Origin: a virus
DNA length: 64,000 nucleotides
Direction: 5' to 3' (one strand)
Virus record (IMG/VR): IMGVR_UViG_3300037424_001177
Span: 95,229 to 159,228 of that record
Shown: piece after piece, positions 13,791 to 47,865 of the stretch
Layout of the letters: every line of letters begins with the position of its first letter
Position numbering within the stretch: position 1 is the stretch's first letter
The notes under the pieces: generated by a model
Database searches by the model: none
The model's input: the letters and a program-made list of their open reading frames with translations, nothing else
Told to the model about the DNA's origin: nothing
Position numbers and translations under genes: made by a program

Positions 13791-13850
13791 GTTTCAATTT
13801 TTATTGGCCATTCGAAGGATGACGGATAAAGCTTAACCACTTTTAGCACC
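13791..13850 (-). repeat. Degenerate copy of the promoter + CRISPR-like repeat cassette (A3)
   Basis: Minus strand TGCTAAAAG...CTTTATCCGTCATCCTTCGAATGGCCAATAAAAATTGAAAC. Confidence 0.6.
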
Positions 13851-13855
13851 TGTTT

Positions 13856-13876
13856 TTTCAATTTATCCGCTGTCCT
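13856..13876 (-). repeat. Partial repeat copy (A2), 3' 21 nt
   Basis: TTTCAATTTATCCGCTGTCCT identical to 13953-13973. Confidence 0.9.
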
Positions 13877-13877
13877 T

Positions 13878-13952
13878 GTCACCGGGGCCCGATAAAGCGT
13901 CTGAGGAGTCACCACGTCAGGACCGTCTATCCGATATTGGTACTCGTTCCAG
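13878..13952 (-). repeat. 75-bp diverged duplicate of the 3' end of the Cys-rich lipoprotein gene (spacer-like segment)
   Basis: 67/75 identical to 14052-14126, ungapped. Confidence 0.95.
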
Positions 13953-14032
13953 TTTCAATTTATCCGCTGTCCTAAGACCAACGGAAAGACCAATTTAGCA
14001 GAGTGGTCTTTCCGTTGCAAGTGTTGAACACT
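13952..14032 (-). CRISPR. Promoter + single CRISPR-like repeat cassette (A1), heading a mini-array
   Basis: TTGCAA(14020-14015)-17 nt-TAAATT(13997-13992) with TG extension, then CTTTCCGTTGGTCTTAGGACAGCGGATAAATTGAAAC (37 nt, hairpin + ATTGAAAC end). CRISPR nature is inferred. Confidence 0.6.
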
Positions 14033-16570
14033 CTAGAACGCCTGGTACGTAGTCACTGGGGCCCGATACAGCGTCTGAGGAGTCACCACGTCAGGACCGT
14101 CTACCTGATACGGGTATTGGTTCCAGTAGCCCCAGCTCAGCCAGTACACGTAGTCGTCGTCAGCGACATCGGCAATGACCGCGTAGGCTTGGTGCGAATA
14201 CCCTGTCCAATAGCCGCTCGTGAAGTTTCTCGTGTCCAGGTATTGATAGTTTGTGTAGATCAGGTCGCCTTTGCTGAACTGGTACTCGCTACCGACCCCG
14301 AGGCTTCCTGTGGTTTGAAAATGCAACAGATCGGCTGTCGCGTCCTCGGGGTAGGCGCCGAAGATGAAGTATTTGTTGTCGGAGGTCGCGATGATTTGGC
14401 CCGACTCCATTCTGATCAAGTCGACAGGCCAGTGCAGAGGTTGACCTGTAACAAGGAAACCATTTTCGTTGATGTATGTGGCGGAGAACGCTAACGAGGT
14501 CTCGTTTTCGATGGTTGACGGTATCGGCGAGGGGCCCGTCGTCGAGTGCTTCAACAACCCTGCGACGTAGGAAGGTTGGACGTTCCAGTAGTAGATGAAG
14601 TCTTCGTCGACGACAATTTTTGGTGGTATCCACCAAGTACCTGTGATTGCGAAGACGACTTCTCCGTACGACAGTGAATCAATTGGCGCACGGTAGAACG
14701 TCACGGTTCTGAACGGGTAGCCGATCGGATCGCAGCCATTGCCAACCCCGTAACACGGTCCTTCCTGGTCCTCGTTGTGCCAGTAAACGTGTGTCGAGTT
14801 CTTCGTGAGGCGCTGGACTAAGCGTCCACTATAGACTTGCGTGCAGTTGAGCGGATCTGGAATCGTTGTCGCGCAGCGTATGATTTCGGACGTATTGGCG
14901 CCGTTAGAGACTGATCCTTTGATGATGTACAGGTGTTGCCCAGCCGCTAATATGCCGCCGATGCCAGTGTTGATGTCGAAACTCGTGATGAGTTCGGACG
15001 CGCTTCCGTCCTTGGGCATTTTTCGAACAATGGCTTGATTTGCGTCGTAGTCGTATTCGGAGGTGTAGAGGTTGTTCTCGTCTTGGGTCAGACCTTGCCA
15101 TCCACTGCTCCCCCCACCTGGATGGACCGCAATCGGTTCGATCCCCGGGTACTCGCAGGTCCCGTTGAGGCATTGGCCGCCGTTGCACGCGAGCCCACAC
15201 ACGCCGCAGTTCGTGTCGTCGTTCTGGATGTTTGTTTCACATCCGGGAGCGGCCGTGCAGTCAGCGAAACCTTGGATGCAGGTGAAGCCGCATCCTTCGA
15301 CGGCGCCGACACAAATTGGATCAGCGTTCTCGGGTGTCGCCGTGCAAGCGTCGCCACACGACGTGCAGTTGGTCGAAGAGCCGAACGTGGTTTCACATCC
15401 TGGAGCAGCCGTACAGTCGGCGAAGCCAGTCACACAGGCGGTGCTACACACGCCAGCCCCTGAGCAGATTGGCGCCGTGTTCGGATCGACCGGACACGAG
15501 ACGATCGAGCCCCATTCTCCCGTAGCGTCGCAAGTCTCAGTCGCAGAGCCACTGCAACGCATCGTCCCTGGCTCACAGTTGCCCGTACAGGCTCCGTTCA
15601 GGCAGGCGTAGGGGCAAGTTGTCGTTGGCGGCTGCCAAGCCCCCTGGGTGTCACAAGATTCGATTCCGAGCCCGGAGCAACGTAGGTCTCCTGGCTCACA
15701 CGTCCCGGCACAGACGCCGTCACCGTCGCAAGCGAATTCACAGTCAGTGTCCGGGATCCATTCCCCGTTCGAGTCACAAACTTCGACGGTCGGCCCTCCG
15801 ACACATCGCTTGGTTCCGGGGATGCATTCCCCGGTACAGGAGGCCGTGCCCGATTCCTCTTTGCACACGAAGTCACAAATGTTGGTCTGGACAAATAGAC
15901 CTTGTCCGTCACACAAGGCAGTGATCAGGGTCATGGTCAGGTCGGGAACTTGTAGGCACGCGTTGGTCCCAGGCACACATACGCCTGTACATGCACCGTT
16001 TTCGCAGCCGAAGGGACATGATTCAGTAGACCATTGTCCGAAGGCGTCGCAGATCTCGTGTTCCCCTGTGTTGAGCGTACAGCGAGCGTCTTCGGGAACA
16101 CACTCACCGATGCATCCGAATTCGTTGTCACAGGCGAACGGACACGTTTCGGTTGGGATCCATTCCGAGCCGTCTTGGCGACAGGATTCGAACGCGGAGC
16201 CGTTGCACTGGGTCGTGCTTGGTTCGCAAAATGTCGTCGCAGGTGAGCCAGCTGTTCCTGTTCCTCCGATGCCAGTCACTCCTGCGCTTCCGCCAGGGGA
16301 GCTGCCACCAGATCCACCAGAACCGCCTAGGTTATCGGCACCCGCGTCTGGCTCAGGTGTGGTGACGGGATCCGTTCCACTTTGAGAGCCTCCAGAACTT
16401 GCGTTTATAGCGGGCTCGAGTTCGGGCGGAATAGGGGCGGAACCCGGTATGCCGATTTGCTTCGGCCCGTAGAGGCTTTCTCCGCAACCTGCGACAGCGA
16501 GCAAGATCGCGAATAATGTGCCAAATCTGGACGGGCAGGTCTTCCGGTTACCTTTGAAGTCGTGTACCAT
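14033..16570 (-). CDS. Cys-rich lipoprotein with Gly/Ser linker, tandem Cys repeats and C-terminal beta-propeller (myxobacterial type)
   Basis: Lipobox LAVAG-C; repeated CPFAC..G.C.G.C.PG..RC units; CETN...D..NCG.CG..C; C-terminal VYW/IYY blade motifs. Confidence 0.75.
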   Translation of the reverse strand: MVHDFKGNRKTCPSRFGTLFAILLAVAGCGESLYGPKQIGIPGSAPIPPELEPAINASSGGSQSGTDPVTTPEPDAGADNLGGSGGSGGSSPGGSAGVTGIGGTGTAGSPATTFCEPSTTQCNGSAFESCRQDGSEWIPTETCPFACDNEFGCIGECVPEDARCTLNTGEHEICDAFGQWSTESCPFGCENGACTGVCVPGTNACLQVPDLTMTLITALCDGQGLFVQTNICDFVCKEESGTASCTGECIPGTKRCVGGPTVEVCDSNGEWIPDTDCEFACDGDGVCAGTCEPGDLRCSGLGIESCDTQGAWQPPTTTCPYACLNGACTGNCEPGTMRCSGSATETCDATGEWGSIVSCPVDPNTAPICSGAGVCSTACVTGFADCTAAPGCETTFGSSTNCTSCGDACTATPENADPICVGAVEGCGFTCIQGFADCTAAPGCETNIQNDDTNCGVCGLACNGGQCLNGTCEYPGIEPIAVHPGGGSSGWQGLTQDENNLYTSEYDYDANQAIVRKMPKDGSASELITSFDINTGIGGILAAGQHLYIIKGSVSNGANTSEIIRCATTIPDPLNCTQVYSGRLVQRLTKNSTHVYWHNEDQEGPCYGVGNGCDPIGYPFRTVTFYRAPIDSLSYGEVVFAITGTWWIPPKIVVDEDFIYYWNVQPSYVAGLLKHSTTGPSPIPSTIENETSLAFSATYINENGFLVTGQPLHWPVDLIRMESGQIIATSDNKYFIFGAYPEDATADLLHFQTTGSLGVGSEYQFSKGDLIYTNYQYLDTRNFTSGYWTGYSHQAYAVIADVADDDYVYWLSWGYWNQYPYQVDGPDVVTPQTLYRAPVTTYQAF

Positions 16571-16626
16571 GACATAGCTAAATACGGTTGAGGGCCTTCA
16601 AAACTTGAAAATGAAAGTGTGAATTT

Positions 16627-17379
16627 GTGAGCAGAAAAGTCACAATCGGAGCAGCGTCCAAGACGGTCCCGATCAAACGAGGCGTGACGTTTGGTCACTG
16701 GACCGTAATGTCAGCACCGTATCGGCAAGGTCGCAAACCGTACGTCAAATGTCGTTGCGCTTGTGGCACACAACGAGGTGTCCAAGTTGACAGTTTGTGT
16801 GCAGGTCGCAGCAAGGGCTGTGGTTGTCGTTTAAGTGGACGCGGGCGTCCCGCACGACACGGTTTCGCCTGTAAAGGGAACCCTCAAAATAACACGTATC
16901 AGTCTTGGGCGCACATGCGTTATTTTGTTGAGAAGCGAGGAGTTCGAGTAGCCCCTCGGTGGCAAGTGTTCGAAGAATTCCTGGCGGACATGGGACCTTG
17001 CCCGGTTGGCAAGATGCTAGGGCGCTTACATCCGAGCCGGGGGTATCACGTCAATAATTGTGTGTGGACTCAACACGAACGATTCAACAATCGGAAGCGA
17101 ACGACTTTTTGGGTGACGTGGAAAGGGCGATCGCAAAGTCTGGCGGATCTCGCACGACTTGAAAACGTGAACTACGAAAAGTTGCGAGGTCGGCTGAGGA
17201 AGACATCGATTGAAGCCCTGCGAGAAATTGTTCAGCAGTTGAGAGCGGAAGGATCTACTTACGTTCCCTACATCGACCGCCGTCCTGGACGTCGTCGCCC
17301 CAAATCATGGCGTCATGAAATTCGAGGGGACGAACGACGATCAATGCCTGTCGGTGTTCCAGTTTTGGATGTCGCGTAG
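16627..17379 (+). CDS. Free-standing HNH-type homing-endonuclease-like protein
   Basis: G.WTV..CRCACG, SKGCGC, TY.SW.HM, RW..FEEFLADMG.CP, RGY...NCVW: common phage HNH/AP2 family layout. Confidence 0.7.
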   Translation: MSRKVTIGAASKTVPIKRGVTFGHWTVMSAPYRQGRKPYVKCRCACGTQRGVQVDSLCAGRSKGCGCRLSGRGRPARHGFACKGNPQNNTYQSWAHMRYFVEKRGVRVAPRWQVFEEFLADMGPCPVGKMLGRLHPSRGYHVNNCVWTQHERFNNRKRTTFWVTWKGRSQSLADLARLENVNYEKLRGRLRKTSIEALREIVQQLRAEGSTYVPYIDRRPGRRRPKSWRHEIRGDERRSMPVGVPVLDVA

Positions 17380-17421
17380 CACCATAGGACTGCGCCCATT
17401 TTTCAGTTACTACGGCGGCAA

Positions 17422-17688
17422 ATGGCGGGAAACTCTGAAACTCCCGCAGTGGTCTACACGGTAGCTGCTGGCGCTTCTGTTGACAAGTATAAGACCTGGC
17501 TGAAGTCGATGTTGCGTGACAAGAAGACGGTCTCACAGTGGTCAAGGGACGTTTTGTCCGCTGCTCGTGTTCACGCGGCCACACGTACAGATGAGACTCT
17601 TCGGCTTTTGGGTGATGCTGCTTGTGCAGAGGCCCCTATCGCACACTCCTCTGTCGATACTTGGCTGGAGGACTTTGGGTTTATCTGA
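17422..17688 (+). CDS. Hypothetical protein
   Basis: ATG-start ORF co-oriented with neighbours. Confidence 0.5.
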   Translation: MAGNSETPAVVYTVAAGASVDKYKTWLKSMLRDKKTVSQWSRDVLSAARVHAATRTDETLRLLGDAACAEAPIAHSSVDTWLEDFGFI

Positions 17689-17712
17689 TTTTGTTTATCA
17701 CCACAGTTGTGT

Positions 17713-17913
17713 ATGGCAGCGCGAACACTGACCTACCTCGATATTCCACCTAATCGCCGACAAGCGATGGCGGTGAAACATCACGCGAAGCTCTTGGAAC
17801 GTTTGGCGGATCCAAGTAACACGCTAAGTCAAGCTCAGGAGCTAGTACAACAGTTGACGCGCCTCAACCAGTGGGCAAATGGTGTGTTGCCGGTTCCAGC
17901 TTCGGAGAATTGA
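17713..17913 (+). CDS. Hypothetical protein
   Basis: Short ORF coupled to next gene. Confidence 0.45.
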   Translation: MAARTLTYLDIPPNRRQAMAVKHHAKLLERLADPSNTLSQAQELVQQLTRLNQWANGVLPVPASEN

Positions 17914-17914
17914 C

Positions 17915-18334
17915 ATGGATGATGTAGTCTCTCAGTTTCTGAGTCGCGGAACCGCGATCATTGCGGTTTCTGTTGTCATATTTGTGTTCTTCACTCGACG
18001 CCTTGTCGAGATCGCATTTCCCTCTCTGAAGCCTCTTGCACGTGAAATGGATCACGGGCCCATGTACACGAGTCGGGGTTCCCTGTTATGGAACCAAGTC
18101 GGGCTCTACGCACTACCTGTCATTGCAGGCGCTCTGTTCGGGATGTTCGTCAAAGAGCCTGCCATTTACGGCGGGACCGAGATCACTACGACCTCTGGTC
18201 GCATCTTTTACGCAATGGTGGTCGGGTGGTTCTCCGACTTCTTGTACGAGGTCGTGCAGAAAACGCTGTACAAGAGTACGGGTATTGCGCTACCAGATCC
18301 AACTCCCAGTGTCCCCCCAACCGAACGAAACTAA
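17915..18334 (+). CDS. Membrane protein, holin-like
   Basis: About three hydrophobic segments in 139 aa; GGAG upstream of ATG. Confidence 0.5.
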   Translation: MDDVVSQFLSRGTAIIAVSVVIFVFFTRRLVEIAFPSLKPLAREMDHGPMYTSRGSLLWNQVGLYALPVIAGALFGMFVKEPAIYGGTEITTTSGRIFYAMVVGWFSDFLYEVVQKTLYKSTGIALPDPTPSVPPTERN

Positions 18335-18827
18335 GGCTCAGAAGGTCTGGGCCTGGATCCGTCGTTGGATCCTTGCACCGTTACCTGCGCTCTTGCTCGT
18401 CATTGGGGCGATCGTCCTGGTCATGTTGGGCGTCAAGAACTTGCAAATCGGTGGTCTCTTGGCCCGTTTGCTTGGCAGGTCCGGTAGCGACAAGAAAGCC
18501 GTCGACGTTGCCAACACTATACCGAAGGACCGTGTCGACAAGGACGGTAAGTTGATACCCATTGGGGTGCCTGATGAGCACGGGATCACGCAAGCCAAGG
18601 TAGTGGCGATTGAGCCCCCAGGTTTATTTTCGAACCCGAAACAAGTAACAATCAAAGCGGAAGACGGCACCAAGCACGTCGTTGATCTGCCTACAGGTGT
18701 CAGGGCGCGAGATGTCGACAAGGTCGTGATCGTGAAGCCTGAAATTTTCGCAGTGACCGTTACCGACTCTTCGAAGGTTCCGAAGAAGACTGTGGACGAT
18801 CTTCTGAAGCGATACGGCGGCAGCTGA
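18309..18827 (+). CDS. Single-pass membrane protein
   Basis: N-terminal TM (ILAPLPALLLVIGAIVLVMLGV); GTG start inferred. Confidence 0.5.
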   Translation: MSPQPNETKAQKVWAWIRRWILAPLPALLLVIGAIVLVMLGVKNLQIGGLLARLLGRSGSDKKAVDVANTIPKDRVDKDGKLIPIGVPDEHGITQAKVVAIEPPGLFSNPKQVTIKAEDGTKHVVDLPTGVRARDVDKVVIVKPEIFAVTVTDSSKVPKKTVDDLLKRYGGS

Positions 18828-19466: not shown

Positions 19467-19478
19467 TCTTGGTGTTAC

Positions 19479-24973: not shown

Positions 24974-27887
24974 AGACGACGACCTCTTGAGTTTTTTGGG
25001 ACTCGTCGAAACTCCCAAAAAATCCGAACCAAAAAAGGCAATGACTCCTATTGCGGTGGGAGGTAACGCCGAAGCATTTCTAGCGTTGCAGAACGACATT
25101 GCGGACAAGGTCAAAGAAACTTCTCTACGTAAACGGTGGATGAAGTTTCATCGTTTCACTTTGGTGAAGACGGTCGAGGAAGTTCGTGCTTTGGTAGACC
25201 GTGCGCTAGCACATGGCCGCTGTTCCCTGGATCTTGAAACTGGAGGATTCGACAACCGCATTGACTACGTCGACGGGCGTCCGAGAACCAAACATCAAAT
25301 TGTAGGGTACGCCATTTCAGTTCGCGGACACGGACACTACATTCCGGTGCGTCACCACTACGACGCCAATTACGAGGAGCGTGACCCAAACGTTCCTGTT
25401 GAGTCCGTGGAGCAAGAGATCACACGACTTTGCCGAGCATCCCAACCTGTCTTGACTCCGGAAGGGTTAGCCGACGATCCGTTAGGATCAAAGGCAATAC
25501 AAGAACCTGGAAAGGTCATCGTCTATTTCGCCAATGCCAAGTTCGACCAGGAGTTTCTGTACCCTGTTACCGGCATCGACTTCTGGCATCCGTCGAGCTT
25601 TGAAGACGCGGAGCTTGCGATTTATGCTGTGCACTCTGACGCTGATCTCGGCTTGAAGGACAACGCTCTACGGTTTCTCAAGATCAAAGACCCTGAGACG
25701 AAGGAATACGTCCCGTATGAGATGATCAACTACGACGAGCTGTTTCCTCCCAACACGCCTCGTAGGGAGCGCAAGATTGCCACGCGCTATCCTGACGACG
25801 ACAGTGACATCGTCGTCTACGGCTGCTCGGATGCTATTTGCACCGAATTGCTTTGCGAGCATCGCAAGACGGATTGGGAACACACGCAGCCCGGTCTGGA
25901 GTATGATTATCGGGAGGTCGTCAGCGCTGTCATCGAGTCCAAGTACACGTTCACGTATCGTCTGGAGAAACAGACTGTACAGGTGATTCGTGTCATGGAG
26001 CGAAACCGCTCCAAGATTGATCGGGCAGAAATCCAAAGACTGTTAACTGAGGCTGAGGCCGAACTAGCGACGTTACTGACGGAAATACGAAAGGTTGGGA
26101 TAGCGCGTGACAGGACCTTGTTCGCGGAACTGAACCCAGGATCGCCGAAGCAATTGTCGGATTTCTTGTTCTCGGAAAGAGGACTTGATCTAAAACCGAA
26201 ACCGAATTTCACGGAGGCTAAGCAGCAATACGAGACCAACGCCAAGGTCCTCGAGAAGCTCGGTGACGCCCCAGGGGCCTCTAAGGTCCTGACCGACATC
26301 ATCAAGTACAAGCAAATCGACAAGATCAAGGGCACCTATCTACAGGGGATGTTGGATACGTGTGATGACCAGGACCAACTGAGGTACAAGTTCAATCAGT
26401 TGGGGGCCATCACAGGTCGATTTACTGCACCCCAAGGTGATACTAGCGACGGCTACGCGGGAATCCCAATTCAGGGGATCCCTGTTCGAGACGATCCCAA
26501 AAAACCCAAGGTCGCACATTCGCTGCGGCGAGCCTTCATCGCACGTGACGGCTACACCTTGGTGAAGTGCGACTACTCAGGGCAAGAGCTTCGAATTTCC
26601 ACCAATCTGTCTGGCGAGGACGTGTGGATCAATGAGTTTTTGCACGGCACTGGCGATATCCATACGATCACAGCCAAGAACATCTTCGGTCCACACATCA
26701 CCAAGAAAGATGAAGTCGAGCGAGACAAAGGCAAGCGCGTCAACTTCTCCATCTTGTATGGAGGTGGGATCAAGGCTGTTCAACGGAACGCAGGATGTGC
26801 GGAGCATGACGCTGCTCGCTGGATCGAACAGTTCCTAGCGGGGGTGCCCAAGATAGAGCAATGGATCAAGAAGCAACACGCGTTTGTCAAAGCCAACAAG
26901 GGTGTCTATTCGGCATTCCGTCGTTGGATTGAGGTTCCTGGTGCGGCCATCAAAGAGGGGGATCTTTCGTGTCAACGGTGTGGGCACTGTTTTACCCCGA
27001 AGAAAGCTGAGACAGAACCTTGTTCAAATTGCGGAGAGAAAATACGTCTAGCCGTAATTGACAAGAAAGAAGCCTGGTCAAGAAAGGGCTCAGCCGAACG
27101 CGAGTCCGTTAACTACCCTGTGCAGGCCACAGGAGCTGACATCATGAAAGTTGCTTTGGTGCTCCTCACTAAAGCATTTCGCAAGCTCAATTGGGACCGG
27201 TATTACGATCAGAATTGGAACCAACTCGGAGACGACCGGGTTCGTATGATTCTGACAGTGCACGACGAAATCGTGTTCGAGATCAAGCATCAACATTTGA
27301 TGGAGGTGATTCCTGTCGTCATTGAGCTCATGGAATATCCGAGTCAGCTGCTACAATGGAAAGTCCCTTTAGTTGTCGATGTCTCACTGGGCCTGAACTG
27401 GGGCAGCAAGATCGCGTGGGACAAGGTGATTTCCAAGAAGACCCCTGTGCCAGAGTGGCTGGTGGAGTTCGTGACTCCAGACGCTTTGCCTGAGAAGATA
27501 CCAGCCGGTCTACCACTGGTCCCGACGATTTCGTCAACTGCGACGACTTTTACTCCGCCTGCTGCTTCTGTCTCGACGGTTCGTGCCGCGTCGCCGGTAG
27601 ACCCCTTGCCAAAGACCGCGACAAATGGTATCCAAAAACCAGTCGCGAAAAAAATTGCTCGATTCGTACTGTGCCAGACGTACCTCACAGAAGCTTCTGT
27701 GAGACTGACCTATGAGGCGGTGGCTGGATCGCTCCAACCTGGAGGGGATGTGTTATTGTGTCTGGTCGATCAGCACGATAACGTGCTGATCGACCCTTTG
27801 GAGAAACCGATACCGATTGACCCTGTATGTTTTGGTCACAAGATGGCGGATCGCGGGTTGGGTCCTGTAACTTACGTGCTGACTTGA
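24963..27887 (+). CDS. polA: Family A DNA polymerase with 3'-5' exonuclease
   Basis: ExoI DLETGG; TGRF; motif A CDYSGQELR; motif B KRVNFSILYG; motif C TVHDEI. Confidence 0.93.
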   Translation: MASEDDDLLSFLGLVETPKKSEPKKAMTPIAVGGNAEAFLALQNDIADKVKETSLRKRWMKFHRFTLVKTVEEVRALVDRALAHGRCSLDLETGGFDNRIDYVDGRPRTKHQIVGYAISVRGHGHYIPVRHHYDANYEERDPNVPVESVEQEITRLCRASQPVLTPEGLADDPLGSKAIQEPGKVIVYFANAKFDQEFLYPVTGIDFWHPSSFEDAELAIYAVHSDADLGLKDNALRFLKIKDPETKEYVPYEMINYDELFPPNTPRRERKIATRYPDDDSDIVVYGCSDAICTELLCEHRKTDWEHTQPGLEYDYREVVSAVIESKYTFTYRLEKQTVQVIRVMERNRSKIDRAEIQRLLTEAEAELATLLTEIRKVGIARDRTLFAELNPGSPKQLSDFLFSERGLDLKPKPNFTEAKQQYETNAKVLEKLGDAPGASKVLTDIIKYKQIDKIKGTYLQGMLDTCDDQDQLRYKFNQLGAITGRFTAPQGDTSDGYAGIPIQGIPVRDDPKKPKVAHSLRRAFIARDGYTLVKCDYSGQELRISTNLSGEDVWINEFLHGTGDIHTITAKNIFGPHITKKDEVERDKGKRVNFSILYGGGIKAVQRNAGCAEHDAARWIEQFLAGVPKIEQWIKKQHAFVKANKGVYSAFRRWIEVPGAAIKEGDLSCQRCGHCFTPKKAETEPCSNCGEKIRLAVIDKKEAWSRKGSAERESVNYPVQATGADIMKVALVLLTKAFRKLNWDRYYDQNWNQLGDDRVRMILTVHDEIVFEIKHQHLMEVIPVVIELMEYPSQLLQWKVPLVVDVSLGLNWGSKIAWDKVISKKTPVPEWLVEFVTPDALPEKIPAGLPLVPTISSTATTFTPPAASVSTVRAASPVDPLPKTATNGIQKPVAKKIARFVLCQTYLTEASVRLTYEAVAGSLQPGGDVLLCLVDQHDNVLIDPLEKPIPIDPVCFGHKMADRGLGPVTYVLT

Positions 27888-27895
27888 CGCCATGG

Positions 27896-27981
27896 TTTCA
27901 ATTTATCCCCCATCTAACGAAGACGACGGAAAACTCAACTTAGCAGAAGTAATCTTTCGTCACAAGCAACTCCTTACTTTC
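27896..27981 (-). mobile_element. Promoter + single CRISPR-like repeat cassette (B), 11-bp flanking duplication
   Basis: TGACGCCATGG at 27885-27895 and 27982-27992; TTGTGA-17 nt-TAAGTT; TTCCGTCGTCTTCGTTAGATGGGGGATAAATTGAAAC. Confidence 0.75.
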
Positions 27982-27988
27982 TGACGCC

Positions 27989-28513
27989 ATGGCGAAGCAA
28001 GACTACCTCCGGCTCTGCAACGACCACAATGTCTCTCACGAGGACTTCACGTTGCAGTTCTGTTCTCGTTGTCAGCAGGCGGAGTGCTCTCGCAGTCAGC
28101 ATGGAAGATCCAGATTTGATCAGCGCGTCCTCTCCTGGGAGAGTCGTCTCTTTACGGGGGTGTCTCGCATGTCCCAAGACGACAGCCGGTACTCTGAAAT
28201 CACGGCCAAGCATTTTGTCGAGGTCGAGCAGCCCAGATCAGAGTGGGTGGATCCTAGGGAAGTCCCTTCCACGACGACTATCTCGATTCCTGCGCCCAAT
28301 GTACATACTGACGTTTCGGAACCTGAACCGGTTGTACAGGTGACCGACCTTGACCCGGTTGCACGGATCCCCAGTTACAACACACCTGTGCGCCAAGGCC
28401 AAATGATCGGCACGCCGATAACAACGCCGAGCGTCAAGGCTGATCCGTGGGAAGCCCCAATCAAGAGCAATGAGCGGATTGTGAAGCCTGGAGCCAAGAT
28501 TAGGTTTCAGTGA
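27989..28513 (+). CDS. Hypothetical protein with N-terminal Cys motif
   Basis: C..F...FCSRC...EC.RS; ATG lies in the duplicated 11-mer. Confidence 0.6.
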   Translation: MAKQDYLRLCNDHNVSHEDFTLQFCSRCQQAECSRSQHGRSRFDQRVLSWESRLFTGVSRMSQDDSRYSEITAKHFVEVEQPRSEWVDPREVPSTTTISIPAPNVHTDVSEPEPVVQVTDLDPVARIPSYNTPVRQGQMIGTPITTPSVKADPWEAPIKSNERIVKPGAKIRFQ

Positions 28514-30188: not shown

Positions 30189-31170
30189 AGCCGCGGCCAA
30201 ATCACTTGAACAGCTCACGACCGAAATACACGAACGTCTGAAGCTGTGTGAGGACATTCACGATCCTCAAATCACAGCTCAGTACTTAGCCGAAGAAGTT
30301 TTGCAGGCCGGCGATCGGATCATCCTCTCGTCAACCGAGACAGGTTACGCAATCGGGGCACTAGATCCGTCCTGTCTCGAGGAACAGCCTCGAGTCATGC
30401 GTGAGGACGGTAGGCTCGGAATCGGGCTTCCGAGGCTGAAACCAGAGGTAGAGGCAGCCCTCACCCTCTGGTTCTCTGAGCGGGGGCGGGAGAAGGAGGC
30501 GATTGACTTATTTTCCGCCCGTCTTGGAATTTCTGCTCTCGACACCAGCCTACTCGTGCTCTCGAGGTCTGGTCGACAAGCTATCGCCACAGCCATTGGA
30601 CAGTTGGACCCGACTACCCTCCTAGACTCCGCCAGAGGCATTTTGAGGGAGTTCTGGTCTAGACTCCAACCGGTAACGACGGAGCCTGACACAATGCCTT
30701 CTGTGAGCGGCCAGACCGTCTCCGGCACGGATATCGGGATCAGCGACTTACGTGGCTTGTCTGTCGTGCACCAGCACGCGTCCAACACACGGGCCAGCTT
30801 AGCTGCTGGTGTGTTGCGGGAGATGGCGCGTTTGATCTCGGGCATATCTGGCAAACCTCACGTAAGTTCGGATTCCGGCCCCGGATTCTGGATTGCTCCG
30901 CCGGAAGCGGTTGGAGCCTTGCTACAGAAAAATCCGCTGAACCGTGTATTGCCGGTAGTTGGCGCGAAAACTGTCTCGCTTTCCCCGAGTGCAGGCCGTG
31001 TGAAGATCGATTCCTACTCGGTATCTTCCAGAGAGTCCGGCGGTTCTTGGTCGGTTTACGCCAGAGTCCATTGGCGGGTTTGGTTACACGGGCCTACTTC
31101 TGTACGCGCCTATCTATTGGATGTTGACCCGGATACGCAAGTGGTTCACAGCTCGCCGTTTGAGACGTGA
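30070..31170 (+). CDS. Hypothetical protein
   Basis: 366-aa ORF in operon. Confidence 0.55.
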   Translation: MDQLSKEPPIRSLAMTVRPIPPDLLAARLILKARPDLLYEAAAKSLEQLTTEIHERLKLCEDIHDPQITAQYLAEEVLQAGDRIILSSTETGYAIGALDPSCLEEQPRVMREDGRLGIGLPRLKPEVEAALTLWFSERGREKEAIDLFSARLGISALDTSLLVLSRSGRQAIATAIGQLDPTTLLDSARGILREFWSRLQPVTTEPDTMPSVSGQTVSGTDIGISDLRGLSVVHQHASNTRASLAAGVLREMARLISGISGKPHVSSDSGPGFWIAPPEAVGALLQKNPLNRVLPVVGAKTVSLSPSAGRVKIDSYSVSSRESGGSWSVYARVHWRVWLHGPTSVRAYLLDVDPDTQVVHSSPFET

Positions 31171-42863: not shown

Positions 42864-42903
42864 CCTTCAGTTCCTAGACACCTGCGGAGGGTAGCGGGAG
42901 AGA

Positions 42904-43380
42904 TCATTTCGCGGGCGTGACAGGAACCGGGCAAGGCTCCACCTTCAACATCGAGCAGAGCTTGTCCGCTTGAGCGCCGAGAGTGATAGCCTGTTCCCGG
43001 ATGGCAGGCACAGCATCGGTGATTTTGGTGACGGTTGGACAGACGTCGTTCATGAGCGTTCGGATCGTCTTGTCGTCTTGTTTGAACAGCGGGAGGATGG
43101 CGCAGGCTGTCTGCACGAGGGCACCAGCGGCGATGGCCGCCTCACCGGACTGGGTGATAGACTTGACCATTCCTTGGACCTTGGCACAGCCGCCGGGCTG
43201 TTTCAGGGCTTCTGAGGCCTCCTGGAAGGTCGTCTTGGCGGATTCGACCAAGGCTGTCGTAGTGGCGACGCCGTTGGTCACCGTGTCCCGAAGGTTATTG
43301 AGGTCTTCTGGCGTCGGAGTGCGTTCGCAACCGAAGACGAGAGTGGATACGACACAAAGAGCGATTAGATTTTTCATCAT
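42904..43380 (-). CDS. Helical lipoprotein
   Basis: MMKN-hydrophobic-LVFG-C lipobox. Confidence 0.65.
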   Translation of the reverse strand: MMKNLIALCVVSTLVFGCERTPTPEDLNNLRDTVTNGVATTTALVESAKTTFQEASEALKQPGGCAKVQGMVKSITQSGEAAIAAGALVQTACAILPLFKQDDKTIRTLMNDVCPTVTKITDAVPAIREQAITLGAQADKLCSMLKVEPCPVPVTPAK

Positions 43381-43440
43381 GGGCTTCACCTGACAGGGGC
43401 GAGGCCACAAGAGCTTTCACTGGGGGGAAGGCTTGCTCGG

Positions 43441-43809
43441 CTAAACGTTGGTCCACTTTTTCAGTGTTTCGGCAAACACGCGACCATTTGGACTGCTGGT
43501 TTGGACGATGCCTACTGGGTCCTCAGGAACCAGTAGTAAGTCGATTTCCACCTTGAGCCACGCTGCGAAGAGTTTCAAGGGACCTTCTGTGAATTGCTTG
43601 TGAACTTCGAGGAGGACTTCGAGCCGGACTGAACTCCGCTTGTCTGACACAGCCGCTTTGTATCGTGAAGCCGCAAGAGTCTTGTCAACAGGTGTTCCAA
43701 CAAGGTCGGATTTACGACGTGCGCGATACCTCAGCCAAGTCTTGGGCCGCAATCCAGTTGCCCAGATATTCAGATGACTGTCGGCGTAGGAGGGCATTTT
43801 CATGTTCAA
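43441..43809 (-). CDS. Hypothetical protein
   Basis: 122-aa ORF; start uncertain. Confidence 0.4.
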   Translation of the reverse strand: MNMKMPSYADSHLNIWATGLRPKTWLRYRARRKSDLVGTPVDKTLAASRYKAAVSDKRSSVRLEVLLEVHKQFTEGPLKLFAAWLKVEIDLLLVPEDPVGIVQTSSPNGRVFAETLKKWTNV

Positions 43810-43862
43810 GGTTTGCGATACGTTCCTCGAGTTGTAGGTTTCTCGCTCTCAGCGTCTTGATC

Positions 43863-43933
43863 TTGTCTTCTTCCACGCAGGCATGATAGCTTACCTGTTC
43901 CGACAACTCAAATGGCTGCGAATAAATTGAAAC
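43863..43933 (+). repeat. Degenerate promoter + CRISPR-like repeat cassette (D)
   Basis: TTGTCT-18 nt-(TGa)TAGCTT then GTTCCGACAACTCAAATGGCTGCGAATAAATTGAAAC. Confidence 0.6.
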
Positions 43934-44472
43934 AATGGGGGACACTCTCGGAGAAACAACTCCAAATCTTGCGACCGTATCTCCGAGGTCGTGTCGTACA
44001 CGACCTCGGAGCCGGCAACTTGGCTCTCGCCAACGTCTTGCTGGACCATGGCGCCAAGAGAGTCATCGCGATCGATGAAAAGCAACCTCGTCCGCCGAAC
44101 GACAATGCACGGATCGAATTCGTACGTACGAAGTTTGAGAACTACAAAGCCAACATCAGGACGGCGTTCGTGTCTTGGCCGACTAACACTGTGTACTGGC
44201 CCGACCACAACACACAGCCGGCACTCGTGCATTTGATCAGTTGTGCGAGTAGGATCATCTACTTGGGCAAAAACACGAGCGGCGTGTTGTGTGGAACCCC
44301 TGCCTTGTATAGGTTCCTGTCGAAACGGGAAGTCCTGGAACACTGGCCGGAGGACGCCAACACGCTTGTCGTCTACGGACCGACAAGCGTGGACTCTATA
44401 GACAGACCCCTACTCCTTGTCGAGCGCGCGGGTATCGACCACACAAGAGTCTACCATTCCGATTTTACTTGA
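43912..44472 (+). CDS. SAM-dependent methyltransferase-fold protein
   Basis: VHDLGAG, VIAID, FVSWP, IYLG. Confidence 0.6.
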   Translation: MAANKLKQWGTLSEKQLQILRPYLRGRVVHDLGAGNLALANVLLDHGAKRVIAIDEKQPRPPNDNARIEFVRTKFENYKANIRTAFVSWPTNTVYWPDHNTQPALVHLISCASRIIYLGKNTSGVLCGTPALYRFLSKREVLEHWPEDANTLVVYGPTSVDSIDRPLLLVERAGIDHTRVYHSDFT

Positions 44473-44507
44473 CGGGCTAGGTAGTCCCTGTCAGGATTCG
44501 ATCCATC

Positions 44508-44750
44508 ATGCCTCGTGAACTGTGGCCCACACCAGCGGTGACCTACCTTGACGGTCCCAGGAAACCGCTCGCGGACCTTCGAGCGTCAGATGTCCCGCGT
44601 GGTCTTGATAGCGATACCGTCATCACGTTGTCTGCTGAGGCGTTTACGACAGTAATGGGACTCATCGAAAATCCCCCGCAGCCAAGTCAACGCCTACGAG
44701 AAGCAGCGAAGCGGCATATGAATTCGGAGACGTATTGTCGAGGCGGCTGA
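44508..44750 (+). CDS. DUF1778/TacA-like antitoxin C-terminal fragment
   Basis: ITLSAEAF..+..++ENPP.PS.RLR.A resembles DUF1778 C-terminus. Confidence 0.55.
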   Translation: MPRELWPTPAVTYLDGPRKPLADLRASDVPRGLDSDTVITLSAEAFTTVMGLIENPPQPSQRLREAAKRHMNSETYCRGG

Positions 44751-44778
44751 GAAAGAACTCACCAAACTTTGTTCTTTG

Positions 44779-44808
44779 AAGCCGCCCGGGACCCCCGAGG
44801 CGGCTTTT
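44779..44808 (+). terminator. Intrinsic terminator-like hairpin
   Basis: AAGCCGCC...GGCGGCTT followed by short T run. Confidence 0.55.
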
Positions 44809-44817
44809 GACATTTCT

Positions 44818-44900
44818 GGGTCCGGGGTTCGTCGTCGGAACGCGACTCACGCTGTAAACGTGGGGCCATTGGCTAAGAAGTTCAACTCTTCACGGACCCA
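44818..44900 (+). tRNA. trnY: tRNA-Tyr(GTA)
   Basis: GGGTCCG/CGGACCC acceptor, loop CTGTAAA, variable arm, GTTCAA; atypical D arm. Confidence 0.75.
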
Positions 44901-44962
44901 CAAAGAAAGACACGATCATGAAAACAGTGAAACACAAGCCCGTGAAGGCGGGCACAACGAAT

Positions 44963-45034
44963 GGAGGTGTAGCTAAATGGTAATGCAACGTGCTTTTAAC
45001 ACGTAGATTGCAGGTTCGAGCCCTGTCACCTCCA
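44963..45034 (+). tRNA. trnK: tRNA-Lys(TTT)
   Basis: Cloverleaf, loop CTTTTAA. Confidence 0.9.
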
Positions 45035-45040
45035 CTTGAT

Positions 45041-45113
45041 GGGTTGCTAACTCAACAGGTAGAGTAGCAGGTTCTTAACCTGAAAGTTCCGAGTTCGATT
45101 CTCGGGCAGCCCA
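45041..45113 (+). tRNA. trnK: tRNA-Lys(CTT)
   Basis: Cloverleaf, loop TTCTTAA. Confidence 0.9.
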
Positions 45114-45122
45114 CAGTTCGTA

Positions 45123-45196
45123 TTCCAGGATCGGCTAATTGGTAGGCCACGTCGCTCTGAACGACGGAACGCTGGTTCGATTCCAGCTCCTGGAAC
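45123..45196 (+). tRNA. trnQ: tRNA-Gln(CTG)
   Basis: Cloverleaf, loop CTCTGAA. Confidence 0.88.
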
Positions 45197-45312
45197 TGAG
45201 ACTTCAGGTCTCTTCAAAAGTCCTTTCGAGGACCTTGCTTTTTGACAATTCGTGTTTTTTCACTCGTGTGGCAGATCGGTGCCCACCCAGGTACCGATCT
45301 GCCCACAAACTT

Positions 45313-45388
45313 GTCCCATTAGTCTAGTGGCTCAGGACGCTGCCTTCTCAAGGCGGTAGCGACGGTTCGAATCCGTCATGGGACGCCA
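45313..45388 (+). tRNA. trnE: tRNA-Glu(CTC)
   Basis: Cloverleaf, loop TTCTCAA, CCA end. Confidence 0.92.
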
Positions 45389-45389
45389 T

Positions 45390-45473
45390 TGTAGGGTCGC
45401 GTAACGGTAGCGCACTCGGCTGTTAACCGAGCGAGGAAAACCTCATTTGCAGGTTCGAGTCCTGCCCCTACAG
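45390..45473 (+). tRNA. trnN: tRNA-Asn(GTT) with long variable arm
   Basis: Loop CTGTTAA; extra GAGG-AAAA-CCTC arm. Confidence 0.85.
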
Positions 45474-45917
45474 CTAGACCTTGCCCTTCTTCCAAACGAG
45501 TTTTTGTGCCGCCTCCCGAATGATGCGGAGCGTTGTGTCAGCTTGCTCTATCCGACCGTCGGACCGGAGTTCTTGCTCGGCCCGTTTCAAGTAGTTGACT
45601 TGGGCTTGAGCCAGCTTGGCCCGAACGTTAGCTCCTGAGTCATCCGTTCTGATTTGTGTTTCCTGCAAAATGCTCTTGGGCAGGACAGTGACGACCGTGT
45701 CGTACTTTTTGAGAACGGTTTCAAGCTGCGGCATTTCGTAGGCTACGAGATCCAAATTCTCCCCGAACCCTCGTGTAGTCGGGATGATCGATCCGTCGGC
45801 CGTTTCCTCGATTCTCCACTTAGTTTTGTTCCAGAGGAGCGAGAACCTACTTCCGTTGACTGCGTTGTCCCAACGAGCTGTTTTATAGCGCTGAACGACG
45901 CGGGCCGGGCTGTCCAT
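45474..45917 (-). CDS. Hypothetical protein with RVxxRY N-terminal tag
   Basis: MDSPARVVQRYKTA; AAGGAAG RBS. Confidence 0.6.
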   Translation of the reverse strand: MDSPARVVQRYKTARWDNAVNGSRFSLLWNKTKWRIEETADGSIIPTTRGFGENLDLVAYEMPQLETVLKKYDTVVTVLPKSILQETQIRTDDSGANVRAKLAQAQVNYLKRAEQELRSDGRIEQADTTLRIIREAAQKLVWKKGKV

Positions 45918-45944
45918 ACTTCCTTGGTTTTGACAAGTATTTTC

Positions 45945-46020
45945 GCGGGTGTCACCTCAATGGCGAGGTCGTTGCCTTCCAAGCAAATGTCGGCCGGTTC
46001 GATTCCGGTCACCCGCTCCA
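45945..46020 (+). tRNA. trnG: tRNA-Gly(TCC)
   Basis: Loop CTTCCAA, TCCA end. Confidence 0.9.
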
Positions 46021-46096
46021 AAATGTAAAATATTGACTTGATCGTGTTTTGGATCGTAGGTTTCCATTTTGGGGAAAACCAAATGAGATACCACAC

Positions 46097-47353
46097 ATGA
46101 AAACCATCCAAATCACACTCGCCGTCGCCCTACTTTTTGCGTGCTCAGGCGCACCTAACCAACGAGTCCCACAAGATGTCGAGGTGGTCACACAGGCACT
46201 CAGCGACTACGCTATCACTGCCACGGTGATCGACAATCCTGCGGCCGGGCTCACACGGACCAAGCACACCGTCCAGCAGGGGACAGATCCTCTGAACGTG
46301 TTTGGCGTGACCCGCGTCAAGTCTTCGTACTCACACAAGCCGGTCATTCTTCACGGACCATTTGGATACGACTACCGATGGTACGAGCTCACAGAGACGA
46401 CCAACTACCGGAAGTCCTTTCTAGGCTCCCTCGCGACGTTAGGGTTCGATGTTTGGGTGATCGACGACAGGTTGTCGAAGCAAGCCCCAGGGACTTGCGA
46501 AGTCACTGGTTGCCTAGCGATGGGCGACTGGACTGTGCAGACTAGGGTCGACGACGCAGAGTTCGTGAGAGGCCTTGTTCTTGGTGCCTACGGCTTGAAC
46601 CAGAAGGTCGTGATCGGGGGCTACGTCGGTGGCGCCATGTTCGCACAAGCGACCGTCAACGCGTTCCCTGACCACTACGCGGGCTTGTTCCTTTGGGAGG
46701 GCTCGATGGTGGCGGATTCCGCCCAACAGGCGTTCTCGGCACCCAACTGTGGGCTCCTACAGTTCGTCACCTCTCTCGGGATCTACTCTGATCCGACTCC
46801 CCAAATCTTCGCGTTACTGTTCCAACTGAAGCAAGCTGACCCAACAGGGATCTCGCCAGTGCCTGGGATCCCTGGACTTGAGTTCCTAGCTGCCAAACTC
46901 GCTGAGCTGGGGATCGTGAACGCGACGAATGATCAGGTCTTCTACGTGGTCAGCACGCAACATTTGAACAATCCCAACTGGCCGACGCCAAGCTTTCACT
47001 TCCTCGCCGGTGACTCAACCGGTGTCGACTTCGCTTCAGAGCCTCGCTACCTCAAGATTGGTGGCATCGTGGACGCCTATGCCAGCCTGACCACAATCCG
47101 GGACATCACGTGCGGCCTGGCAGGCGATACGACGTACACGGACAACCTAGCGGCCTTCGAGGGCAAAGTCTTGGCGCTTGGTGCGCATGGCGGGTTCGGT
47201 GCTGAGCTTGAGTTCACGGAAGCCGCTTACGAAAACGCGGACTACGACGTGTTCGTGAACGAGGACTTCGGCGAGAGCGATCGCTTCTTCAATCCACATC
47301 GCTTCTTGCTCGCAGACGTTCCCTTTGCTATTTGGGCATCGACAGTTTTTTAA
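46097..47353 (+). CDS. Alpha/beta-hydrolase-fold lipoprotein
   Basis: Lipobox LLFA-C; ILHG, GFDVW.ID.R; elbow reads GYVGG. Confidence 0.65.
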   Translation: MKTIQITLAVALLFACSGAPNQRVPQDVEVVTQALSDYAITATVIDNPAAGLTRTKHTVQQGTDPLNVFGVTRVKSSYSHKPVILHGPFGYDYRWYELTETTNYRKSFLGSLATLGFDVWVIDDRLSKQAPGTCEVTGCLAMGDWTVQTRVDDAEFVRGLVLGAYGLNQKVVIGGYVGGAMFAQATVNAFPDHYAGLFLWEGSMVADSAQQAFSAPNCGLLQFVTSLGIYSDPTPQIFALLFQLKQADPTGISPVPGIPGLEFLAAKLAELGIVNATNDQVFYVVSTQHLNNPNWPTPSFHFLAGDSTGVDFASEPRYLKIGGIVDAYASLTTIRDITCGLAGDTTYTDNLAAFEGKVLALGAHGGFGAELEFTEAAYENADYDVFVNEDFGESDRFFNPHRFLLADVPFAIWASTVF

Positions 47354-47406
47354 CCGTCAGACGTTGAGAGGCTACCAGGTTGCCCTACCGTTAGGGCTAA
47401 TTGACC

Positions 47407-47865
47407 CTAGTCGACGATCCCCATCAGGAAAGCTTCCTCTTCCGACTCCTCGACAACAATCACAGGCTGAGTGTTTGGGATCCCATAGTCCAGGGTCCCA
47501 GCTCTCAGCTCCGTGAGGAGCTGAATTCTCCCCATGTGGTTGCCGAGAAGATCTCGGATTCGCCGCGCCTCAGGCGTTCCGCGTTCGAGGGCATTCTCTT
47601 TGGCTACTTTAGTCAACATCACCCAAGTCGTGGCAGGACCGTCCCCGTCGGCTGTCGTGAATCCCACGTCTCGGTCCTTGACTGAATTGATGGGAAGAAA
47701 GCACTCTTTGGGTCCGAGCCTGTGCTGACGCACAGCTTCCAGAAGCTCGAAAATGTTGTCGTATTTCAATTTTATCCGCCACCCAATGAAGGCGATGGAA
47801 AACAACTTAGCAGAAGGAATCTTGTGTCACAAGTGTTCTCACTCGAAAATGTTGTCGTAGATCAT
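47407..47865 (-). CDS. Hypothetical protein interrupted after codon 8 by cassette C (may restart at an in-frame TTG in the cassette)
   Basis: Removing cassette plus one duplication gives MIYDNIFELLEAV..., with ATG 1 nt after the upstream gene's TAG. Confidence 0.6.
47764..47841 (-). mobile_element. Promoter + single CRISPR-like repeat cassette (C), 18-bp flanking duplication
   Basis: CTCGAAAATGTTGTCGTA at 47746-47763 and 47842-47859; TTGTGA-17 nt-TAAGTT; TTCCATCGCCTTCATTGGGTGGCGGATAAAATTGAAA. Confidence 0.78.

Follow-up and report, generated by a model that had tools for sequence, protein, structure and literature searches.

The window analysed here, 64,000 nucleotides long, is the final 64 kb of a 159-kb fragment from an uncultured huge phage with a genome of about 300 kb. 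It carries several copies of a unit of about 80 bases, in which a promoter-like motif precedes a hairpin shaped like a single CRISPR repeat. The 159-kb fragment contains five full copies of this cassette and a relative phage of about 90% identity contains three, one being common to both; decayed remnants are present besides the full copies. Three full copies lie in the window, all on the minus strand: c1 (13952..14032), c2 (27896..27981, 86 bp) and c3 (47764..47841, 78 bp). A sequence profile built from the full copies recovers full cassettes at E values of 1e-16 to 4e-21 (c1, 1.9e-17; c2, 3.7e-21; c3, 1.4e-17), and the copies lie where a first-pass annotation of this DNA had placed them. Outside the window, two further full cassettes are found at genome positions 75641-75724 and 7124-7203 and a degenerate copy at 30981-31020, all on the minus strand. 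A covariance-model scan over 461 kb of the two phages revealed no additional copies. The seven full cassettes share a single genome orientation, whatever the local gene direction.

The cassette c1 begins directly after the stop codon of an 845-aa gene (14033-16570). Next to it lies a duplicated copy of the 3' end of this gene, termed X' (13877..13951, minus strand), that is 89% identical to 14052-14127; the flank duplication as a whole is a 76-nt stretch (13878-13953 versus 14052-14127) of 89% identity. X' has the allele seen in the relative phage, and the 845-aa gene's own end is diverged. A partial cassette follows that consists of the 3' arm and tail only (13856..13876, minus strand; covariance-model E 0.44) and is identical at 21/21 positions to the 3' end of c1 (13953-13973). 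Beyond it is a decayed, older cassette that still shows a hairpin and a tail along with a degenerate -10 region (13791..13850, minus strand; covariance-model E 9e-5); 13 nt separate its end from the probable ATG (13777-13775) of the gene downstream. The remnants claimed earlier at 13856-13876 and 13791-13835 are thus real. A CRISPR mini-array at this 13.8-kb locus was considered and rejected: the second repeat comprises the 3' 21 nt only. The intervening segment within 13856-14032 is a 76-nt copy of the neighbouring gene's end, and spacers of the genuine array in the relative are mostly 30-39 nt. All cassettes outside this locus are single.

The cassette c2 sits between the stop codon of the DNA polymerase gene and the ATG of the next gene (174 aa). 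It is flanked by an exact duplication of 11 bp (TGACGCCATGG), the right-hand copy of which (27885..27895, plus strand) contains the polymerase stop and the left-hand copy (27982..27992, plus strand) the ATG of the 174-aa gene; the relative has a single-copy empty site (L001, about 8925-8945). Together with c5, c2 forms the pair of most similar and apparently youngest copies. Both are antisense to both flanking genes, according to third-codon-position substitution bias, and have no open reading frame to drive, so they are not simply gene promoters. A different arrangement is seen at c3, which is inserted after codon 8 of a 132-aa gene with an exact 18-bp duplication. The downstream copy of this duplication (47746..47763, minus strand) now forms codons 3-8 of the gene, and the upstream copy (47842..47859, minus strand) is part of the orphaned original start (ATG 47865-47863), which now reads into a TGA across the boundary of duplication and cassette (47842-47840). 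The cassette tail gives the gene an in-frame TTG-AAA start (TTG at 47770-47768). This start is cassette-derived in both phages, the relative retaining only that part of the cassette (L008). In the 7124 copy and in the relative's copy L018:158-214 the tail reads GGAG, 8 nt and ATG. Judged by these gene starts, the tail has been co-opted as a translation start at some sites.

We show here that cassette copies spread to new sites with target duplications of 10-19 bp, that they are polymorphic between close relatives and that they decay via 5' deletion. c2 and c5 have clean empty sites in the relative phage, and two of the relative's copies are absent from this fragment. The first-pass annotation had called the unit apparently mobile and proposed a search of relatives for empty sites; such alleles are found, and with the target duplications they demonstrate insertion. 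The 11-bp and 18-bp flanking duplications that it described are exact, and its diverged one is the 76-nt stretch at c1. Target duplications measure 10-11 bp, 18 bp and about 19 bp and are therefore not of fixed length, and microhomology is seen at the junctions of c3 (GAG) and c5 (GAAA). Searches with Cas7c, the DNA polymerase and the 174-aa neighbour yielded only one close relative among the collections; a contig that is syntenic but distant, from a crustacean metagenome, carries no cassette.

The first-pass annotation recognised no cas or transposase gene in the window, and no tested cas family (Cas6, RAMP, Cas1, Cas5d), Y1 transposase or reverse transcriptase was found in the 159-kb record; the relative, however, encodes a type I-C variant, described below. 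Y1 transposases, the only family covered by the transposase search, and reverse transcriptases are missing from either phage record. Spread by reverse transcriptase was therefore rejected, as was an IS200/IS605-type origin, given the missing Y1 transposase and the target duplications. Integron attC sites were also discarded because the core sites do not fit. Like MITEs and other non-autonomous elements, the cassettes are short, non-coding, multi-copy, insertion-polymorphic and flanked by direct duplications; however, their ends are not inverted repeats, the duplication length varies as given above and the tested transposase families are absent. Since no transposase or reverse transcriptase was found, our guess is that insertion might occur by illegitimate or template-switch recombination filtered by selection.

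The layout common to c1, c2 and c3 is as first described: TTGnnn, 17 nt and TAARTT (in c1 TTGCAA, 17 nt and TAAATT), then TTTCC-stem-loop-GGA(T/G)AAATTGAAA. All full copies have a conserved TGCTARRTT, resembling an extended -10 element, 5-8 nt before the hairpin, and in most copies a -35-like TTG lies 17 nt upstream of the -10-like motif. The spacing of the -10-like motif to the hairpin is kept in all seven full copies, even where the remaining upstream part has been replaced; in a sigma-70 scan the promoter-like motif scores below the standard threshold. Hairpin and tail span 36-41 nt, with 36 nt in the compact copies such as c1, where they end in ATTGAAAC. Every copy folds into a hairpin (folding z -1.8 to -5.3) followed by 9-11 unpaired nt that end in ATTGAAAC or ATTGAAAT. 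Of the earlier claim that the stems differ while pairing is kept, the folding stands, but compensatory covariation is weak (2/9 pairs). Hairpin and tail are the conserved core of all copies (57-84% pairwise identity), and the promoter part (30-95%) shows conservation within subgroups only. Variation falls in the apex, with stem base and tail conserved, a pattern also seen in the 33 array repeats of the relative. Folding also indicates that the hairpin sequesters GGAG. No T run follows the hairpin, and a terminator scan found no terminator at the cassettes. One copy is 100% conserved between both phages within a block that is 96% identical.

The cassette might be a selfish or structural DNA palindrome without RNA product. 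It could then be copied, as a hairpin-forming element, through template switching during replication, or act as a signal at the DNA level, and its promoter-like and handle-like motifs would be incidental. The single orientation of seven copies (two-sided P about 0.016) would fit strand-specific, single-strand or replication-linked copying, and the variable duplication lengths and the microhomologies would fit template switching, as would the lack of a transposase among the Y1 family tested. We regard such a palindrome as improbable, because a -10-like motif that keeps its distance from the hairpin in each of the seven full copies points to selection on transcription, and the copy that is fully conserved in a less conserved block also speaks against it.

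Small intergenic units of promoter and stem-loop that end in the ribosome-binding site and start of the next gene are known from T4-type phages as PeSLs; they are concentrated at indel junctions between close relatives and have been termed mobile regulatory cassettes (PMC2839356; PMC4122927). By analogy, the cassette could be a phage promoter with a stabilising 5' hairpin and a ribosome-binding/start region, spread through recombination at gene boundaries, and its CRISPR resemblance would be coincidental. The order of elements in T4-type PeSLs, namely upstream stop, -35, -10, stem-loop, Shine-Dalgarno and start (PMC2839356), recurs here, the copies are located at boundaries of genes and at the junctions of indels that distinguish the two phages, the tail supplies the gene starts described above, and where the relative's copy g174 has its empty site, a gene start is preceded by a related -10 motif. 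However, this start-proximal layout holds for c3, the relative's L018:158-214 and possibly c1, and fails for the antisense c2 and c5. PeSLs always face their gene, whereas the full cassettes keep one genome orientation regardless of gene direction, and it is the hairpin, not the promoter, that is conserved. The GGAG would be hidden in the stem. PeSL stem-loops act as terminators and vary in position within the promoter, whereas cassettes have neither a T run nor a predicted terminator. PeSLs also spread when their copies undergo homologous exchange (mini-circles), have not been described with target duplications and number about 50 per genome compared to about 5-8 cassettes here. A PeSL-like unit is in our view the main rival explanation, though less likely than not. 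If the cassettes were only promoter/leader units, they would carry the PeSL concept beyond T4-type phages into a huge phage unrelated to them and add insertion with target duplication and in-frame start-codon donation.

The likeness to CRISPR repeats is one of architecture. In line with the first-pass annotation, hairpin and tail have the shape of a type I/III repeat, with 36-41 nt, a GC-rich stem and 9-11 unpaired nt ending in ATTGAAAC. [quoted passage not shown] The cassette agrees with a type I-C repeat in architecture and in the last 8 nt, and 8/11 handle positions equal those of a Xanthomonas I-C repeat (PMC8916207). Repeat length varies from 36 to 41 nt among cassettes, unlike in a real array. 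Comparison with known repeats, as had been suggested, brought no cas-linked array with the cassette repeat: neither 185,579 species genomes nor JGI metagenomes contained a match to the conserved pattern, and in IMG/VR the strict pattern matches only the relative phage. A 16-nt tail pattern hit about 100 IMG/VR loci, all of which were set aside as chance coding matches (Met-Ala-Glu/Asp-Lys-Leu-Lys N-termini) without hairpin. With Rfam, at gathering and permissive thresholds, only tRNAs and CRISPR-DR2 (E = 3.7) match, which is uninformative since Rfam also misses the genuine array of the relative. Arrays ending in AAATTGAAAC occur at at least 120 loci, and among the matches listed is a Poribacteria MAG array adjoining cas10. 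Its 31-nt repeat has the first six and the last twelve bases of the cassette with a hairpin between, and the array strand could be either. The reverse complement of the cassette ends in ACGGAAAC, which we take to be handle-like from its likeness to type III-A repeat sequences. Because of this second end and the ambiguous Poribacteria strand, the CRISPR-like look may partly reflect a generic GTTTC...GAAAC palindrome.

The relative phage encodes Cas5c (L012:2668-3333), Cas8c, Cas7c and a helicase beside its array of 33 repeats. This is exactly the gene set of the type I-C variant described in huge phages, which has Cas5-Cas8-Cas7 and a helicase instead of Cas3 and is devoid of Cas1/Cas2 (PMC7162821). 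Thus, hijacking of a host system is not the sole option. The cassette hairpin has the general I-C repeat build, yet the array repeat differs from it in stem base (CAGG...CCTG) and tail (ATGATTTCAAC), the tails being equal at 6/11 positions, so processing of the cassette by the phage Cas5c is not implied. The cassettes furthermore are solitary and dispersed and have their own promoter-like motif. Spacers of the array have no significant match in either phage.

Our favoured reading, to which we give slightly less than an even chance, is that the cassette is a mobile solitary-repeat (SRU/Racr-like) RNA unit, the tail of which is sometimes co-opted as translation start. An RNA element would be the selected core of a small non-autonomous mobile unit. 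The promoter-like motif is placed such that transcription would start at the foot of the hairpin, and the product would resemble a type I-C repeat, in which a GC-rich stem with a variable apex is preceded by a short 5' tail and followed by about 11 unpaired nt that end in AUUGAAAC. A Cas protein that recognises repeats may bind such an RNA and perhaps cleave it; candidates are the Cas5c of a type I-C system in the host and that of the variant encoded by the phage lineage itself. The RNA would most likely serve as a decoy or an unconventional guide. We prefer this reading because the compact 36-nt copies with their handle-like ends are built as type I/III repeats, because hairpin and tail rather than the promoter are the conserved core, because conserved stem base and tail with a variable apex mirror the relative's array, and because the lineage encodes Cas proteins beside that array. 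It is further suggested by the Poribacteria repeat, by c2 and c5, which have no gene to drive, and by the mobility seen in empty sites, absent copies and exact duplications. Against it stand the missing cas-linked array with a cassette repeat, the different repeat of the relative's own array, the marginal Rfam match, the variable length together with subthreshold promoter motif and weak covariation, and the tail that reads GGAG, spacer and ATG/TTG at several sites and supplies the start at 47770.

Viral solitary repeats directly after a promoter and away from cas genes have been described, and a type I-C Racr works (PMC10651486), which adds to our preference. Like RacrIC1 and RacrIF1 (PMC10651486), the cassettes are phage-borne single repeat-like hairpins with a handle-like tail, a predicted promoter-like motif just upstream and no cas families in the 159-kb record. 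Several cassettes per genome would also fit the dose-dependent inhibition shown for a type I-F Racr (PMC10651486). In contrast to Racrs, which are defined by close similarity to host repeats, the cassettes have no known cognate host repeat, are multi-copy, mobile with target duplications and variable in length and apex, and sit in a phage lineage with its own type I-C variant system and a different repeat. CreA/CreR and viral Cracr RNAs, which occur in phages and reprogram Cas effectors without cleavage (bioRxiv 10.1101/2024.10.29.618823), are comparable as degenerate repeat-derived RNAs outside normal arrays. In these RNAs, however, a short pseudo-spacer matches a defined promoter and there are usually two repeat-like elements; no such target match was identified for the cassettes. 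More tentatively, a CRISPR-repeat-derived small-RNA gene could have turned into a protein-free mobile element of which each copy feeds a Cas complex, be it a host type I-C/III complex or the phage's nuclease-less I-C variant, as decoy or flank guide. Acting as a guide, it could allow a carrier phage to shut down the immunity of its host or to keep out relatives that have no cassette. The solitary CRISPR repeats known from phages are static and occur as single loci; a family whose members multiply in a genome, vary between close relatives and leave target duplications would mean that RNA anti-CRISPRs or rogue guides can act as mobile DNA. Such mobile repeats would also be linked to a lineage of phages that maintains a nuclease-less type I-C system of its own, the repeat of which is distinct, raising the question of how phage and host CRISPR machinery are insulated.

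The first-pass annotation had gone further and proposed that each insertion makes the flank a crRNA spacer, such that a Cas complex of the host, or now conceivably of the phage, attacks cassette-free alleles of co-infecting relatives. The carrier would be protected by the adjoining repeat, and the outcome would be a protein-free homing or exclusion element. Empty alleles in a co-circulating relative, which the flank would match fully, and Cas proteins in the lineage agree with this, as do c2 and c5, whose would-be guides run antisense to two transcribed genes, one for the DNA polymerase and one of 129 aa. Type III systems require no PAM and mark self by pairing between tag and target flank. 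But a match to the empty allele follows from the logic of any insertion, since the flank always stays in place. A second repeat that could set the crRNA 3' end is lacking, except the partial one at 13856-13876 after a 76-nt segment, guides of c1 and c3 would have the same sense as the mRNA, leaving 2/5 copies antisense, and type III genes are missing from either phage record. The triplets before the would-be protospacers in the empty alleles (CGA, ATC, non-TTN) are not the type I-C PAMs TTN/CTC (PMC8916207). Homing would moreover account for spread at a single locus but for neither the target duplications nor the transposition to new loci. We consider flank-guided homing very improbable; the cassette is probably a mobile CRISPR-related small-RNA gene and not a self-guiding homing device.

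A degenerate copy had also been claimed at 43863..43933 (c4). It is doubtful at a sequence-profile E of 4.1 and may be a domesticated remnant or a chance match; it lies on the plus strand, opposite to the full cassettes, and a 186-aa open reading frame (start 43912) shares its first seven codons with the tail.

The cassettes, mobile units of about 80 bp with a promoter-like motif, a single CRISPR-repeat-like hairpin and an unpaired tail, are insertions. They were compared within the lineage between two genomes, which is all that the collections searched contain, and no close relative was found among deposited phages. The 159,228-bp virus record, whose bases 95,229-159,228 make up the window, aligns end to end, in reversed direction, to 110-275 kb of G001, an IMG/VR phage of 301,550 bp that has direct terminal repeats (80-97% identity). 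Thus, the genome that the window samples is that of a huge phage, about 300 kb in size, of which the record is a fragment. A sequence profile made from the full copies, which score with E-values of 5e-16 to 4e-21, picks out five full cassettes here, all on the minus strand: c1 (window 13952-14032), c2 (window 27896-27981), c3 (window 47764-47841), c5 (genome 75641-75724) and a copy at genome 7124-7203. Three are found in G001 (174206-174284, 271782-271866 and 268450-268529, the last an identical orthologue of the genome 7124 copy), all on the plus strand, so that their relative orientation agrees with that of the copies in this record. When the 461 kb of both phages were scanned with a covariance model, no new cassettes came up. 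The first-pass annotation gave correct coordinates for its three clear copies and for the remnants; its degenerate copy c4 (window 43863-43933) is doubtful, reaching only E = 4 with the profile and overlapping the first codons of a 186-aa ORF. Further weaker members are the two remnants at 13.8 kb of the window, genome 30981-31020 (orthologue G001 245394-245437), G001 300549-300585 and, on the opposite strand, G001 120158-120214. The hairpin and tail at genome 30981-31020 and its orthologue lie within a 264-aa ORF, and two tail changes in G001 (AA to GG) are matched by 5'-side changes that give a longer stem. Around c4, about 780 bp of window 43441-44472 correspond to about 95 bp in G001 (126115-126210), an indel that takes in c4 and the start of the 186-aa ORF with its DLGAG motif typical of methyltransferases. 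A mini-array was rejected for the 13.8-kb locus, which is a nested mosaic from duplication, deletion and allelic exchange and consists of a full cassette, 76 nt duplicated from the 3' end of the neighbouring gene in a G001-like allele, a 21-nt perfect copy of the cassette 3' end and an older decayed cassette.

The empty sites expected in relatives by the first-pass annotation exist: G001 is cassette-free at the polymerase junction that holds c2 and at the site at genome 75.6 kb. At the c2 site, the 10-11 flanking bases occur only once in G001, with nothing inserted. The duplication here is exact (27885-27895 equals 27982-27992), and excision of c2 restores a stop, four bases and the ATG at the DNA polymerase junction. 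At genome 75.6 kb the target of about 17-19 bp, now diverged, flanks the cassette on either side. Two G001 cassettes, those at 174.2 kb and 271.8 kb, are absent from this record. At 47.8 kb, c3 is flanked by an exact 18-bp duplication; G001 retains only the 3' arm and tail at this site, with the junction to the gene at the identical base, and therefore this insertion is older than the split of the phages and its 5' half was deleted later. An identity of 95% between the upstream parts of c2 and the 75.6-kb copy suggests recent copying. The target duplications have no fixed length, the cassette ends are not inverted repeats, and neither phage record holds a reverse transcriptase or a Y1 transposase. 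Gain and precise loss through the duplications cannot be separated with two genomes. A distant syntenic relative, a 34,949-bp crustacean metagenome contig (45% identity in the polymerase-adjacent gene), has no cassette at its polymerase junction; its DnaB-like and ClpX-like genes carry inteins with LAGLIDADG domains.

Hairpin and tail are 57-84% identical among all cassette pairs, whereas identity of the upstream part ranges from 30 to 95%, with conservation within subgroups only. Upstream, all full copies have in common only a -10-like TGCTARRTT, placed a few bases ahead of the hairpin, and four copies have TTGnnn exactly 17 nt upstream of it. The motif scores below the threshold of a plain sigma-70 scan, and we therefore only infer promoter activity. 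Every hairpin gives a good fold (-11 to -20 kcal/mol, z -1.8 to -5.3), and 83% of the cells in the model-fitted alignment pair, compared to 35-60% when partners are slid; compensatory changes occur in only two of nine pairs and shuffling controls were not decisive. Conservation lies in the stem base and tail; the apex differs between copies in sequence as well as in length (36-41 nt overall). In the plus-strand genes that flank c2 and the 75.6-kb copy on either side, substitutions between the phages fall on third codon positions; hence, both cassettes are directed antisense into the ends of real genes, and neither has an ORF of its own to serve. c1 and c3 run in the direction of the neighbouring genes. 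c3 interrupts a 132-aa gene after codon 8, and its tail supplies an in-frame TTG-AAA in place of the first two codons, just the part that G001 retains. Irrespective of the direction of the surrounding genes, the seven distinct full copies all point the same way in the genome (two-sided P ~0.016), and this orientation does not track the GC-skew turning point near 44 kb. A promoter/leader cassette like the promoter-early stem-loop (PeSL) units of T4-type phages (PMC2839356) would explain the gene-boundary positions, the tail read as GGAG-spacer-start and the donated start codon. It leaves unexplained the two antisense copies, the uniform orientation and the conserved hairpin beside an interchangeable promoter-like part, and we regard it as rather unlikely. 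A solitary-repeat RNA gene would account for these three points. Viral solitary repeat units (SRU/Racr) usually occur at a distance from cas genes, with a promoter immediately before them (PMC10651486), and the cassette hairpins likewise directly follow a promoter-like motif and are remote from cas genes. We tentatively favor a mobile SRU/Racr-like RNA cassette, at times co-opted for translation initiation; it ranks first because of the points it explains and stays somewhat short of an even chance because it lacks its key proof, a host or phage array whose repeat matches.

The absence of cas genes stated by the first-pass annotation holds for the window and the whole 159-kb record, but not for the lineage. 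In a part of G001 that the 159-kb fragment does not cover (L012:2668-10870, outside the window), Cas5c, Cas8c, Cas7c and a 793-aa helicase with no detected HD domain are followed by an array of 33 repeats with spacers of mostly 30-39 nt; no Cas1, Cas6 or RAMP was found in G001. This is the type I-C variant described for huge phages, which likewise has a helicase instead of Cas3 (PMC7162821). A Cas5c 80% identical to that of G001 is found on another metagenome contig. The 36-nt array repeat consists of a stem and an 11-nt tail, ATGATTTCAAC. Ten of its first 11 copies are identical and the other has a single change, while older copies keep stem base and tail and vary in the apex with pairing kept. 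The spacers match neither phage. The cassettes have the same build and variation pattern, however with a different stem and a tail that ends ATTGAAAC. Many type I and III repeats have ATTGAAAC as their canonical handle motif (PMC8482600), and the cassette tail equals the Xanthomonas type I-C handle (PMC8916207) at 8 of 11 positions. The cassette thus stands nearer to canonical type I-C than to the array of G001 itself. The strict pattern of conserved stem base plus tail recovered zero arrays in 185,579 species genomes or JGI metagenomes. A scan for arrays with repeats ending AAATTGAAAC gave at least 120 loci, and among the matches listed is a cas10-linked array in a Poribacteria MAG, whose 31-nt repeat has the first six and last twelve bases of the cassette around a GC hairpin and may be transcribed from either strand. 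The reverse complement of the cassette ends ACGGAAAC, likewise handle-like and presumably similar to type III-A handles, and the CRISPR likeness may in part reflect the GTTTC...GAAAC symmetry that such repeats generally show. Read forward, the hairpin has the unpaired tail behind it, like real repeats; read in reverse, handle and stem would overlap. Homing, in which the flank beside each cassette would guide a CRISPR complex against cassette-free alleles, is possible and without specific support. The match between flank and empty allele holds by construction, none of the triplets before the would-be protospacers in the empty alleles is a type I-C PAM (CGA, ATC and a non-TTN triplet), and there is no second repeat. 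Guides antisense to mRNA, as a PAM-free type III system would need, would come from only two copies, and type III genes are absent from both phage records.

At genome 71498 (minus strand; orthologue G001 204235), both phages have the same TGCTAGGTT motif followed by a different short hairpin that lacks the ATTGAAAC tail, which may be a related promoter-hairpin unit. Two bases past the tail of the 7124 cassette, a strong sigma-70-like promoter (10/12, with TG; L256:196-223, genome ~7095-7122, minus strand) precedes a GC-rich hairpin, a tandem promoter arrangement with this cassette. The gene content of the window includes a family A DNA polymerase and 21 tRNA genes, the latter on the plus strand at 44963-54719 in several clusters with small minus-strand ORFs between them; c3 lies inside this region. 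In window 1-2800, three paralogous ORFs, each about 230 aa long, follow one another in tandem every 700 bp or so (repeat family D1/D2/D6, 65-76% identity). Two large ORFs of 875 and 1351 aa (window 3502-6129 and 8769-12824) have several 60-nt segments in common at about 75% identity and are probably paralogous structural or fibre genes.
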